Shown here in pieces: positions 30,578-63,191 of a DNA stretch of 64,000 bases. Positions within the stretch are counted from its first letter, which is position 1; each line of letters starts with the position of its first letter. The position numbers and the translations under genes are program-made. A model generated the notes under the pieces. That model was given only the letters and a program-made list of their open reading frames with translations. It did no database searches and had not been told where the DNA came from. The stretch comes from Candidatus Omnitrophota bacterium (lineage in GTDB: Bacteria; Omnitrophota; Omnitrophia; Omnitrophales; Aquincolibacteriaceae), in NCBI GenBank assembly GCA_035368605.1, contig DAOSLF010000001.1, positions 22,877-86,876 of the forward strand, written 5' to 3'.

Positions 30578-31753
30578 CTATCGCCAGTGTGTCGGGTGTT
30601 TCAGCGCGGCCATTTTCAGGGCATCCGCGAGGATGAGCGTGAAAACGGCGGCGGCAAGCGGATGAAACAATGCTGATACCGGATTCGCCTTGACTATCGT
30701 ATGGGTCTTAAACGCCGTGATCCAGATGATGAACGCAAGTCCTGTCGCCAGAATCCCGGCCAGTGAATTTCCGAAACAGAAAGGCAGGATGGCGAACGGT
30801 AACACCGAAAAAAGAAAAGTGCTCAGGACACAGCGTAGAAGGTCCGCCGGATTTTGTTCAAAGGCGTGAAGGTAGATGCGCCGCCACCCCCGCCATAGCG
30901 TCTCGAACGAGTCATACATCCGGGTACCATAGAGATTCATTCCGAAAGCGCAAATCCCCTTTGCCCCGGTTTCCTTGGTCTTTCTCATCAGCGCGAAGTC
31001 TTCGAGAAAAGCCTCCTTGACCGCGTGATGACAGCCGAGTTTCCGGTAATGGCTGTGCCGGAGAAGGAGGTACTGGCCGTTTCCGAAGTAGACCTTTGAT
31101 TCGGGATCGTTGATCTTCCGGACAGGGAACCATAGCCCCATGTAGCCCATCGCGCAGGGCTGGATGAGGTTTTCCCAGAAGCCGTGAGCCAGACAGCGGG
31201 GAAGCAGGGTCAGGAGGTCAAGGGAGTTTGTTTCCGAAAAAGCGATCGCGGCGTCGACGCTTCCCGGTTCGTGTCTTGTGTCGGCGTCCGTGAAAAGCAG
31301 CCAGTCGCCTTTGGCGTAGTCTTTGCCGAGATGAAGCGCATAGTTCTTTCCCGTCCAGCCTTCAGGAGTCTCGGGAGTATTGAGATATCCCAAAAAGGGT
31401 CCGTCGCTACTGTCCTTTTTTGTACCGAAAAAGGTGCCTGACCCCTTGATTTCCTCAGCGCCAAGGTCTTTCAGGATCGCTTCGGTTCTGTCTGTGGAGC
31501 CGTTATTGATGACGATGATCTCATCGCTCTCTCGGAGCTGGCTCAAAAAGGGCCGGACGCATGCCGCGATGTTTTTTTCCTCGTTCCGGGCCGGGATCAG
31601 GACCGTCACAGAACCTTTGCGAATGTTTCCGGAAGGAATTCTGAGCGCGGGGGCTTGGGCCAGTTCGGAGAGGGACCGGATGCTACGGTAAATCCATACA
31701 CCAAGCGCAGTCAGGAGATAGGTCAGGAGGATGGGCTCCATAGAGTCAGGCAT
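30578..31753 (-). CDS. membrane-anchored GT2 glycosyltransferase
   Basis: N-terminal TM, VLIPARNEE, IIVINNGSTDRT and FTDADT (DxD), plus C-terminal hydrophobic helices. Start assumed at MPDSMEPILLTY. Confidence 0.7.
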   Translation of the reverse strand: MPDSMEPILLTYLLTALGVWIYRSIRSLSELAQAPALRIPSGNIRKGSVTVLIPARNEEKNIAACVRPFLSQLRESDEIIVINNGSTDRTEAILKDLGAEEIKGSGTFFGTKKDSSDGPFLGYLNTPETPEGWTGKNYALHLGKDYAKGDWLLFTDADTRHEPGSVDAAIAFSETNSLDLLTLLPRCLAHGFWENLIQPCAMGYMGLWFPVRKINDPESKVYFGNGQYLLLRHSHYRKLGCHHAVKEAFLEDFALMRKTKETGAKGICAFGMNLYGTRMYDSFETLWRGWRRIYLHAFEQNPADLLRCVLSTFLFSVLPFAILPFCFGNSLAGILATGLAFIIWITAFKTHTIVKANPVSALFHPLAAAVFTLILADALKMAALKHPTHWR

Positions 31754-31821
31754 CTTAGCAAATGGAGATGGCGGGTCAAGGAAAACTATCAACGGCTAGC
31801 ATTTCTAATCGTTGGGATGGA

Positions 31822-60824: not shown

Positions 60825-61505
60825 ATGGTCAAAGGCATTAAGAGCTGGCCGGAAAGCGAGCGGCCGCGTGAAAAGCTGTTAAAAAAGGGGAGCGATGCGT
60901 TGTCGGACGCGGAACTCCTGGCGGTACTCTTTTGTCATGGTATTCGGGGGCTCGATGCGGTCAGCTTTTCCAGGGTGCTTCTGGCGGAAGCGGGAGGCCT
61001 TCGGGGGCTCTTGAACCGCCCTCATGAATGGGCCGGAAAATTGAAAGGTCTGGGAAAGGCCAAGATCGCCATGCTCGCTGCAGTCCGCGAGTTGGGTGTG
61101 CGGCATCTCCGGGAAAAAATGACCGGGCAGAATTTCATCCGGAGCCCGCAGGCGGTCGCGGATTATCTTTATGCCGCGCTGCGTGACAGGAAACGGGAGG
61201 TTTTCAAGGTTCTCTTTCTCGACAAGTCGCTCCGCATTCTCGGAGAGCGGGACCTCTTTATAGGGACGGTTGATGAGGCGGCCGTGCATCCCCGCGAGAT
61301 CGTGAAGGCCGCGCTGGAATTCCACGCGTCCAATATCGTGCTCGTGCACAATCACCCCTCGGGGAAAACGGAGCCGAGCCGGGAGGATTACGAGATCACA
61401 CAGAAGATCAAAGCCGCCTGCCAGACGGTCTCGGTGCGGGTGTTGGACCATATCATCGTCGGTGAGAATCAGCACTTCAGCTTTTCCGAGCGCAATGTTT
61501 TATAA
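60825..61505 (+). CDS. radC: RadC-like JAB/MPN domain protein
   Basis: HNHPSGKTEPSREDYEITQKI (JAMM-like HxHPxG motif). N-terminal HhH-like region. Confidence 0.8.
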   Translation: MVKGIKSWPESERPREKLLKKGSDALSDAELLAVLFCHGIRGLDAVSFSRVLLAEAGGLRGLLNRPHEWAGKLKGLGKAKIAMLAAVRELGVRHLREKMTGQNFIRSPQAVADYLYAALRDRKREVFKVLFLDKSLRILGERDLFIGTVDEAAVHPREIVKAALEFHASNIVLVHNHPSGKTEPSREDYEITQKIKAACQTVSVRVLDHIIVGENQHFSFSERNVL

Positions 61506-61513
61506 AAAAATAC

Positions 61514-62260
61514 GGGGTCAGACACCATTTCCCTGTAATGGTGTCTGACCCCATTCGTTGGAGGCTATTATGGCGAGGCCGAATCGCGGATTTATTGACG
61601 GGGGGATTTACCACATTTTGAATCGTGGCAACGGAAGGCAACCGGTTTTCCTCAGCGAGGGGGATTATCGGGCCTTTATAGATGTGCTTCAGGAATCCAA
61701 AAGAAAATTTTCGGTCGCGTTGTATGCTTATTCGATCATGCCGAATCACTTTCATTTTGTGGCGGAGTGCTCAAGCGCGAAAACTTATAGCCCCTGGTTG
61801 CAGTGGCTGACGACAACTCATGCTCGGCGTTATCACAAGTATTACGGAGGGAGCGGCCACGTCTGGCAAGGGAGATTTAAAAGCTTTTTGATAGGATCAG
61901 ATGAATATTTCCTGACAGTGCTGCGTTACGTCGAATCGAATCCGCTTCGGGCGGGTCTGGTCTGTTCTGCGGATCTTTGGCCCTGGTCTTCATTCAGGCA
62001 AAGGGATGGTTTTGATGACAATAAATGGATTGATGAGCCGCCTGTTCCATTACCCCAGGGTTGGAGCGATTGGGTGAATCGCCCAATCGGGGAGCCGGAG
62101 CTAATTGCCCTCCGTGCAAGTGTTAACCGTCAGGCGCCTTACGGCCCGAAACTGTGGCAAATAGAGATGTGCAAGAGGCTAAAAATGGAGTCAGTGTTAA
62201 AGCCATTGGGACGGCCGAAACGGGGTCAGACACCGTAATAGGGAAATGGTGACTGACCCC
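61514..62260 (+). mobile_element. IS200/IS605-family or REP-associated (RAYT-like) Y1 transposase element bounded by inverted 39-bp palindromic hairpins
   Basis: Left GGGGTCAGACACCATTTCCCTGTAATGGTGTCTGACCCC (61514-61552). Right GGGGTCAGACACCGTAATAGGGAAATGGTGACTGACCCC (62222-62260). The loops are reverse complements of each other. The element sits between the convergent radC and HAD genes. Confidence 0.75.
61570..62238 (+). CDS. tnpA: Y1 (HUH) transposase, IS200-like/RAYT
   Basis: GGAGG RBS. GIYHILNRGN and MPNHFHFV (HUH motif) plus YVESNPLRAGLV (catalytic Tyr region). The last codons RGQTP-stop are encoded by the right-end hairpin. Confidence 0.8.
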   Translation: MARPNRGFIDGGIYHILNRGNGRQPVFLSEGDYRAFIDVLQESKRKFSVALYAYSIMPNHFHFVAECSSAKTYSPWLQWLTTTHARRYHKYYGGSGHVWQGRFKSFLIGSDEYFLTVLRYVESNPLRAGLVCSADLWPWSSFRQRDGFDDNKWIDEPPVPLPQGWSDWVNRPIGEPELIALRASVNRQAPYGPKLWQIEMCKRLKMESVLKPLGRPKRGQTP

Positions 62261-62261
62261 A

Positions 62262-62948
62262 TTATTTGAGGCAGGCCAGAAACGCGGGGATATCGGTGAG
62301 GTCCTTCAGGATATGGTCGGGTCGGTTTTGGGAGAAGTGCTCACGGGAACGTCCGTTCGTGAGTACCGCGATGCTTCGTAGCCCCGCCGCATTGGCTGCC
62401 GCAATGTCGTATTCGGTGTCGCCGATAACGAAAGTCCGGGAGCGCTCGAATTTCCTGCCGGCAACCTTTTCGGAATGCGCGATCCCTGCCATGAGAATCT
62501 TCCGGCGCTCCCTTGAATCCATCCCGAATCCGCCTGCTCTGAAATAACGCTCGATCCCGCCTCGCGCGAGCTTCATGCGTCCCGCGCCTTCAAAATTTCC
62601 CGTAGCGAGGGCCAGAAAGATATCTTCGCGCGCGGAGAGATGTTCGAGCAGGGGAATGACGCCCGGCATGAGTCTGAACCGGACCGCCTGGTTAATATAT
62701 TTTCCGAAAAGCAGCTCGTAGCGACGCATGAGGGTGTCGAATTCATCCGCAGAAAGCAATCGCCCGATCTCCCGGAGCGCGATTTCGTCGAAGATCGCGG
62801 CATCTGTCCGTCCGTGAGGATCGAGATCCTTCCAGCAACCGGATATCCCGAAGATTGCTTCAAACGCTTCTTCAAGCGCAATCTTCCCGACGCCTTCCGC
62901 CAGCAGCAGGGTCCCGTCTATGTCGAATAAAAGAAGTTTTTGCAGCAT
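62262..62948 (-). CDS. HAD-superfamily hydrolase (phosphoglycolate-phosphatase-like)
   Basis: LLFDIDGTLL (motif I) and VIGDTEYDIAAA (motif IV). The stop lies 2 nt from the IS hairpin. Confidence 0.75.
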   Translation of the reverse strand: MLQKLLLFDIDGTLLLAEGVGKIALEEAFEAIFGISGCWKDLDPHGRTDAAIFDEIALREIGRLLSADEFDTLMRRYELLFGKYINQAVRFRLMPGVIPLLEHLSAREDIFLALATGNFEGAGRMKLARGGIERYFRAGGFGMDSRERRKILMAGIAHSEKVAGRKFERSRTFVIGDTEYDIAAANAAGLRSIAVLTNGRSREHFSQNRPDHILKDLTDIPAFLACLK

Positions 62949-63191
62949 CCGGGATTTTAGCATAAATATCCAATGTTCGTTATGTTGACATGGGCATTCA
63001 AAAGTTTTTCTTGTGAAGATGATGGCGGTCGAGGCGTTGCTTGGCCGGAGGACCGATGATGGTCTTTACCCTTTGTGGGAGCACGGTTTTTTTGCGAGAT
63101 TCCGGCGCCTTTACTCTAGCGATCTGTCCGAAGCCGTGCTTCCCGTATATGCGCATCGGTAAAAGCGCTTTCAGGTTCTCTCCCGTTCGGC

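Follow-up and report, generated by a model that had tools for sequence, protein, structure and literature searches.

A probable TIRYT-type tyrosine transposase gene between two 39-nt palindromes at the radC/HAD site of an uncultured Omnitrophota bacterium

In a 64-kb stretch of contig DAOSLF010000001.1 from an uncultured member of Omnitrophota (hereafter the window, which means this whole stretch, with positions counted from its first letter), a gene for a HUH/Y1 transposase lies between two 39-nt palindromes, in the gap between radC and a gene for a HAD-family hydrolase. The protein is related to the transposases associated with repetitive extragenic palindromes (REPs), known as REP-associated tyrosine transposases (RAYTs). 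According to our analysis, the locus is a TIRtron, that is, a resident single-copy transposase gene of the TIRYT type enclosed by two GGGGWSAS palindromes that are its likely targets; we give this reading a probability of about 80%.

Two palindromes around one transposase gene

The left palindrome (61514-61552, no strand assigned) reads GGGGTCAGACACCATT/TCCCTGT/AATGGTGTCTGACCCC and forms a perfect 16-bp stem closed by a 7-nt loop; with its arms GGGGTCAGACACC and GGTGTCTGACCCC it was annotated as the cognate REP or terminal inverted repeat (TIR) unit of the gene. Folded as single-stranded DNA, it reaches -18.6 kcal/mol (z = -7.7). The right palindrome (62222-62260, likewise without strand) reads GGGGTCAGACACC/GTAATAGGGAAAT/GGTGACTGACCCC and has a 13-bp stem with one mismatch, a 13-nt loop and a folding energy of -12.8 kcal/mol (z = -4.2). 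For either palindrome, none of 200 shuffled sequences folded as well. The 13-nt arm GGGGTCAGACACC occurs four times within the 750-nt stretch of the element.

The transposase gene (61570-62238, plus strand) encodes 222 aa and was identified as TIRYT/RAYT-like from a profile search, an alignment to a solved structure, a family alignment and an AlphaFold2 (AF2) model. Its ATG at 61570 is the start chosen by the gene callers in public assemblies, and a GGAGG ribosome-binding site (61560-61564, plus strand), read directly from the sequence, stands 5 nt before it. Within the gene lie the codons for the NHFH motif (61744-61755), for the catalytic Tyr120 (61927-61929) and for an invariant, AT-hook-like GRP (62209-62217). 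The last codons, CGG GGT CAG ACA CCG, encode RGQTP and are followed by the stop codon TAA (62236-62238). Because the right hairpin begins at 62222, the 5' arm of the palindrome codes for this (R)GQTP tail, and the loop contains the stop codon.

Both neighbours of the element are conserved, and they converge on it: radC on the left (60825-61505, plus strand) and the HAD-family hydrolase gene on the right (62262-62963, minus strand). The radC stop codon ends 9 positions from the left hairpin (8 bases between them), and the HAD stop codon ends 2 positions from the right hairpin (1 base between them).

Compared over 49 nt, the two palindrome units match at 84% when one of them is inverted and at 78% in direct orientation, and their loops agree at 10 of 13 positions as reverse complements against 5 of 13 directly. 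The first-pass annotation of this stretch had presented the palindromes as inverted copies of each other down to their loops, with the end of the transposase gene written in the right one and the stop codons of two convergent genes close by. Our coordinates agree with all of this, and two qualifications should be added. The inverted arrangement is not conserved among orthologous loci, the hairpin pair being inverted at L182 and L183 and direct at L181, L313, L326 and L357; and a stop codon inside the repeat is typical of the family rather than special to this locus, as shown in the next section.

A search of positions 61000-62800 against Rfam returned no family at E ≤ 1, and no sigma-70-like promoter was found in 61300-62500. 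Since no promoter-like site precedes the transposase gene, it may be transcribed by read-through from radC. The sequences 3' of the left and right hairpins (61553-61569 and 62261-62275) resemble each other in direct orientation; the left copy contains the ribosome-binding site of the transposase gene, and the right copy is the reverse complement of the C-terminal codons of the HAD gene. The same likeness is present at L181 (flanks TTTATTGGAGGCAG and TTTATTTGAGGCAG) and L182 and was not seen at L326; it may have originated from an old duplication or by coincidence.

The transposase and its class

The protein scored 51.4 bits with the Pfam profile PF01797 (Y1_Tnp), for which the cutoff is 23, and the match spans positions 6-121 of the 121 in the profile. 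Its best sequence match in the PDB was TnpA_REP of Escherichia coli (4er8), to which it is only about 20% identical; in this alignment, H60-F-H62 corresponds to the HMH of 4er8 and Y120 to its catalytic Y115. The AF2 model, built from 27 homologues, had a pLDDT of 87.5 and a pTM of 0.87, and a Foldseek search with this model placed 4er8_A first (E = 1.6e-9, TM score 0.75 normalised to the target), followed by structures of ISDra2 TnpA and IS608 TnpA. The initial recognition of a Y1 HUH transposase is thus borne out by profile, alignment and fold.

A family alignment of 27 homologues, in which the window protein is included by construction, has 39 invariant columns; by the same construction the window protein keeps all of them, among them the HUH histidines, the tyrosine and GRP. 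The motifs of the window protein are N59-H-F-H62, W99-Q100, Y120-VESNP and W139-S-S141, and N124 and P125 of Y120-V-E-S-N124-P125 are invariant in the alignment. In the AF2 model, the C-terminal part of about 80 residues forms a predicted helical extension with no counterpart in 4er8. This extension is conserved across the family up to the invariant G214-R215-P216, where the family consensus, RPRGRPKK, has the look of an AT-hook; the residues beyond it are disordered in the model. A Pfam search found no Bac_DnaA_C or helix-turn-helix (HTH) domain in the C-terminal part. One possible role of the GRP tail is to contact the A/T runs next to the GGGG core of the repeat.

These features can be compared with published classifications. 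Subclass 2.1 of TnpA_Y1, which corresponds to RAYT Group 1 of Bertels et al. 2017 (PMC5581495) and to the TIRYTs of Di Nocera et al. 2013 (PMC6006769), is characterised by NH[YF]H, W[EQ], Y[IV]ExNP, an SS tail motif, a median length of 238 aa and a C-terminal extension (PMC6006769, Table 1). The tyrosine motif Y---NP marks class 2, whereas Y---Q marks the IS200 subclass 1.1 (PMC6006769). TIRYTs have been described as RAYT-like genes between TIRs with the consensus GGGGWSAS; some of these repeats are self-complementary, some overlap the 3' end of the gene and some are dispersed (PMC3733652). The canonical REP-associated subclasses (2.2, 2.4, 2.5, 2.7 and 2.8) go with hairpins that have a 5' foot GT[AG]G (PMC6006769). 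The outer arm of each window hairpin begins with GGGGTCAG, which fits GGGGWSAS. Judged by its motifs and flanking repeats rather than by the hidden Markov models of the original authors, the sequence of the window gene fits the TIRYT/TIRtron class (TnpA_Y1 subclass 2.1) and not that of a canonical GTAG-REP RAYT.

The organisation of the locus is also that of the wider family. Among 69 usable loci of homologues, which come from many phyla, the gene lies between TIRs of at least 11 nt in 61; a strict GGGGWSAS match was seen in 29 of these 61, and most of the 61 have AAAAGGGGACAGGCTACTTTT or a GGGGACATTCTAC variant. In 40 of 75 family loci, the reading frame stops at the TAG contained in the right repeat GTAGCCTGTCCCC, and in the family alignment the proteins of several relatives end in KRGQTLF, KRGQATF or KRGQSLF, read from the repeat itself. 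On account of these counts and tails, a stop codon inside the right-end repeat can be considered the family norm. The open reading frame of the window gene has no stop codon of its own; past the conserved GRP(K/R) end it continues into the neighbouring repeat, which supplies one, and most members of the family do the same. The sole difference between the window locus and the rest of the family is a full palindrome at each end in place of a single arm.

With the TIRtrons described in PMC3733652 the window locus shares a tyrosine transposase gene flanked by GGGGWSAS inverted repeats, the possible overlap with the 3' end (termed 3'ov), and repeats of which some are self-complementary and some form moderately abundant dispersed families; the occurrence of TIRtrons mainly in genomes without GTAG REPs is a further likeness. 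It differs from them in its complete 39-nt palindromes, in its uncultured Omnitrophota host and in the series of four repeat types and loss scars at one syntenic site (see below), which is not described there. With subclass 2.1, or RAYT Group 1, it has in common the motifs, a length near the 238-aa median, the conserved C-terminal extension, an apparently low copy number and a wide, patchy distribution, whereas the dispersal of the flanking palindrome in close relatives and the lack of a detected Bac_DnaA_C or HTH Pfam domain set it apart from the subclass as presented in PMC6006769. E. coli TnpA_REP (YafM, the REPtron; 4ER8, Messing et al. 2012) is likewise encoded by a single-copy gene between cognate palindromes and is thought to mobilise these palindromes and not itself. 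In comparison with it, and beyond the low identity, the window protein has the additional helical C-terminal part ending in GRP, and its hairpins lack the GTAG foot and stand as one palindrome per side, without REP arrays or bacterial interspersed mosaic elements (BIMEs). A suggestion that the gene is a domesticated REP-associated transposase was made in the first-pass annotation, which also proposed a comparison with transposase and RAYT profiles. The suggestion is supported by TnpA_REP as the closest solved relative, from the Y---NP motif, and from the single fixed locus and syntenic orthologues described below; the profile comparison put Y1_Tnp above its cutoff and REP_Tyr_transpos just below.

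Residency, divergence and loss at the radC/HAD site

In assemblies from anaerobic digesters and other sources, GCA_022705965.1 among them, 23 contigs were found to encode the exact transposase protein, and the context on the contigs listed is always radC-RAYT-HAD-mutS-mutL. The exact HAD protein was used in the same way: 23 of the 23 contigs examined that encode it also carry the transposase gene, so that no empty-site allele was seen in the species. A 1-kb region of the locus is 99.6-100% identical across samples from several studies, with the exception of L376 (98.5%), which is an indel-rich, low-coverage contig, and none of the located mismatches falls in the hairpins. In GCA_022705965.1 (JAKJDM010000002.1; L094 and L379), radC is called as two pieces of 144 aa and 73 aa, which suggests a frameshift or an assembly error; the other assemblies have an intact radC of 226 aa.

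Orthologues with 51-69% identity lie between radC and HAD in at least six diverged relatives from Omnitrophota (L181, L182, L183/L184, L313, L326 and L357), including hosts whose flanking proteins are only 68-72% identical. These close relatives were collected through the HAD neighbour; a direct scan of the genome collection for RAYT homologues gave at least 600 matches. The site-resident RAYTs form one clade in 90% of 300 neighbor-joining (NJ) bootstraps against 42 homologues from other contexts. At 80 family loci from other phyla, neither radC nor HAD was found nearby, and for this reason the shared position reflects a common history within the clade. The same count (0 of 80) also rules out a functional link of the RAYT to radC or HAD, which had been considered as a candidate. 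At L326 (L369; MHFU01000136.1), the type A RAYT of RIFOXYB12_FULL_50_7 is interrupted by an N run (a scaffold gap) at about residues 95-140, including the catalytic tyrosine.

These data bear on the possibility that the whole hairpin-tnpA-hairpin unit is an autonomous, compact IS200-like insertion sequence (IS) that transposed into the space between radC and HAD, as had also been proposed at first. The Y1_Tnp domain, the hairpins at both ends, the tight fit between two genes and the empty radC/HAD sites of relatives would all suit such an element. On the other hand, the gene has one fixed locus on all contigs examined, with no empty allele in the species, and orthologues sit at the same site in diverged hosts as a single clade. 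IS200/IS605 transposases (IS608, ISDra2) share with the window protein the HUH/Y1 fold and the recognition of hairpins in single-stranded DNA, but these elements carry Y---Q, exist in several copies per genome and bear, at their left and right ends, subterminal hairpins that are distinct but equally oriented. The window gene shows none of these features: its motif is YVESNP, it was found at one locus, and the palindrome is the same at both ends. Moreover, what is dispersed in relatives is the 39-nt hairpin alone and not a unit that carries the gene. A search of viral contigs turned up neither a relative of the protein nor a copy of the palindrome, and the relatives on plasmids are less than 40% identical. 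An autonomous IS is therefore extremely unlikely, and the initial proposal of one was abandoned.

Within the resident clade, the left and right hairpins match each other in every genome and differ between genomes, so that four types can be told apart. Type A, with the arm GGGGTCAG[A/T]CACC, is found in the window and at L181, L182 and L326; type B, with the arm GGTGCCAGGCAT, at L183; type C, with the arm GGGACAGGCTGA and a long AT-rich loop, at L313; and type D, with GGGGACAGTCCCC doublets in the arm, at L357. The similarity of the RAYTs goes with the hairpin type. Among the type A proteins, which group together at 99% bootstrap, the identity is 61-69%, and the RAYTs of types B to D are 51-58% identical to all others. 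The four types are represented among hosts with 83-90% identity in RadC and HAD taken together.

The cassette has also been lost. The first-pass annotation had proposed to look for empty-site alleles in relatives, and such sites exist: radC directly adjoins HAD in 17 related genomes, and their RAYT genes were deleted outright, with no decayed genes seen. The spacers of these genomes show three states. Some are without a hairpin (3-9 nt in most, longer in a few), others hold a mini-palindrome such as AAAGGGGTCAGACCCCTTT (L319), which resembles a 39-nt unit that has lost its middle part, and others hold one decayed full-length hairpin. In the tree of RadC and HAD, the genomes with solo type C hairpins (L318 and L320) are sister taxa of the genome with the type C RAYT (L313), and the solo type A hairpin of L314 groups with L181. 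The junction of the hairpin with the HAD stop codon, CCCC-N-TTA, is identical in all types and in most relics. This pattern fits an old cassette that was lost several times, probably through recombination of the hairpin copies on either side of it. At L314 (CAYZYT010000008.1), the spacer contains the solo degenerate type A hairpin beside a second copy of the last eight HAD codons; this extra HAD end (PAFLACLK-stop) lies about 50 nt from the real one and looks like a scar of the loss of the RAYT cassette.

Divergence of the RAYTs does not track that of their hosts, and because of this a simple, clock-like vertical descent cannot be the whole story. L181 and L183 are 88% identical in RadC and HAD and 58% in the RAYT, whereas the corresponding values for the window and L181 are 71% and 65%. 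The mismatch may be due either to bursts of enzyme evolution at the time of a hairpin change or to exchange of cassettes via the conserved flanks, which the RAYT trees, being NJ trees on saturated distances, do not separate. In its stronger form, the second possibility means that RAYT-hairpin cassettes replaced one another at radC/HAD, by targeted insertion into a resident hairpin or by homologous exchange through the flanks. Besides the identity values, it draws on the type A clade, which joins the window with L181 and L182 despite their distant hosts, and on the presence of four hairpin types among closely similar hosts. The residents are nevertheless monophyletic, in 90% of bootstraps, with respect to the 42 non-resident homologues, the CCCC-N-TTA junction is shared by all types, NJ on saturated distances can misplace fast-evolving lineages, and the sister position of the solo type C relics is that expected from vertical descent with loss. 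We consider replacement rather doubtful as an alternative to a resident TIRtron that has changed in place.

Dispersed hairpins and the proposed mechanism

Copies of the hairpin away from the radC/HAD site were found in relatives. The closest relative in the genome collection, the Omnitrophica genome RIFOXYB12_FULL_50_7, has a type A RAYT at radC/HAD with its 2 flanking hairpins and, on other contigs, 10 further copies with exact type A arms and one A-variant. The census of palindromes that the first-pass annotation had proposed is thus positive in this relative. These units share a common loop, ATTTCCCTAAAAT or its complement, occur in both orientations, and are bare 39-nt hairpins that carry no gene. 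They are situated 5-12 nt past stop codons, often between convergent genes, and A-runs on the 5' side and T-runs on the 3' side give them the look of two-way intrinsic terminators. For type B, 2 extra copies were found within 20 kb of L183. At L363 (CAZDVO01) and L367 (JBAZER01), one exact type A hairpin each lies between convergent genes; the radC/HAD site of CAZDVO01 has only a mini-palindrome (L310), and that of JBAZER01 has a type C RAYT (L313).

The terminator-like look of the units leads to another explanation, in which the hairpins are ordinary bidirectional terminators of radC and HAD belonging to the host, and a transposase gene with no relation to them happened to land between two duplicates. 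The left hairpin is followed by a T-run on the minus strand, and its terminator score is positive on that strand only. The hairpin copies of relatives have similar A- and T-run flanks past stop codons, and mini-palindromes occupy the same spot in relatives without a RAYT. However, the arms agree with the GGGGWSAS repeat found on either side of genes of this family in different phyla. In each genome the two hairpin copies match, they vary with the type of RAYT, and the reading frame systematically ends inside the repeat. Furthermore, a hairpin can act as a terminator and also be recognised by the RAYT, since these roles do not exclude each other. The explanation by host terminators alone is thus very unlikely.

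Several observations weigh against the TIRtron reading, to which the mismatch between RAYT and host divergence described above should be added. The equivalog profile NF047646 (REP_Tyr_transpos) of NCBIfam gave 78.0 bits, a near miss of its cutoff of 80. The window hairpins are without the GT[AG]G foot of canonical REPs, and Quentin et al. found no REP-like sequences near subclass 2.1 genes (PMC6006769). In the literature, we found no biochemical evidence for any member of subclass 2.1. Finally, the window together with about 10 kb of extra flank (about 74 kb in total) contains no hairpin copy besides the two that flank the gene. This last result may be uninformative because the 11 copies in the whole RIFOXYB12_FULL_50_7 assembly would imply a low density.

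The missing copies in the 74 kb, together with the stem mismatch of the right hairpin, may alternatively suggest that the gene is an inactive relic in the window's genome, retained by chance between immobile hairpins. The open reading frame, however, is of full length and has all 39 family-invariant residues, the left hairpin is perfect, and the locus is almost identical in nucleotide sequence across the samples of several studies. In addition, where relatives have lost the function, the gene was removed altogether and did not decay. An inactive relic is consequently unlikely, and activity of the TIRtron in the window's genome is predicted.

The mechanism that we propose for the TIRtron follows from better known enzymes. 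TnpA_REP of E. coli and the TnpA proteins of IS608 and ISDra2 bind a hairpin in single-stranded DNA, cleave beside it by means of a tyrosine and rejoin the strand. By analogy with them, the window enzyme would bind its hairpin once the DNA becomes single-stranded and would cleave beside it through Tyr120, with the HUH histidines holding a metal ion. Rejoining of the strand elsewhere would then copy the hairpin units, and not the transposase gene, to new sites. Units that land just past stop codons, with A- and T-run flanks, would probably serve the host as two-way terminators or as stabilisers of RNA. The gene itself would already have stood between radC and HAD before the diversification of this Omnitrophota clade began, with gene and hairpins changing together, and repeated loss of the cassette would have left solo or collapsed hairpins behind.

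A broader claim joins three parts: that a subclass 2.1 system in Omnitrophota is REP-like, that it has undergone at least three switches of specificity in situ (types A to D), and that its dispersed hairpins are mobile two-way terminators. We put forward this combination only tentatively, as it is less likely to hold in full than to fail in some part. If true, it would provide a natural series of matched enzymes and DNA targets from which to learn how subclass 2.1 reads its target, and a RAYT system whose benefit to the host can be named. The locus itself is ordinary, being one more TIRYT/RAYT-type gene with flanking repeats, and the current understanding of RAYT systems is unchanged by our findings. 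Only the series of hairpin types, relics and dispersed copies obtained by comparison of relatives goes further than the two classifications (PMC6006769 and PMC3733652). In a subclass said to have no REPs, the flanking palindrome is nevertheless dispersed in close relatives, and a decay series after loss leads from the solo hairpin through the collapsed mini-palindrome to nothing. For specialists, this series could serve as a matched set for tests of enzyme-hairpin recognition and of termination.

Palindromes of the window type are not confined to this clade. A scan of the genome collection matched 90 stretches, none of them from the window's organism, and multi-copy palindromes of this type occur in unrelated metagenome-assembled genomes (MAGs) such as JBAYRO01 (Burkholderiaceae) and DATGEH01 (Gaiellaceae). 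In the matched stretches (L001-L090), the exact arms GGGGTCAGACACC and GGTGTCTGACCCC belong to multi-copy palindromes of MAGs from many phyla, with loops and flanks specific to each genome; a RAYT homologue was nearby in only 2 of the 90. A scan of metagenomes for the palindrome gave at least 120 matches, and among those listed there was no digester sample containing the window's organism.

The rest of the 64-kb window contains a single half-site with one mismatch, at 31433. About 0.08 matches of at most one mismatch are expected by chance per window. This arm copy, which reads AAGGGGTCAGGCACCTTTTT on the minus strand, has A-run and T-run flanks (31388-31447) and lies within an open reading frame on the minus strand (30578-31792) for a GT2 glycosyltransferase. 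It is in frame there and encodes ...KGSGTFF... in a loop whose sequence is hypervariable among all homologues. The half-site may be a decayed intragenic REP.

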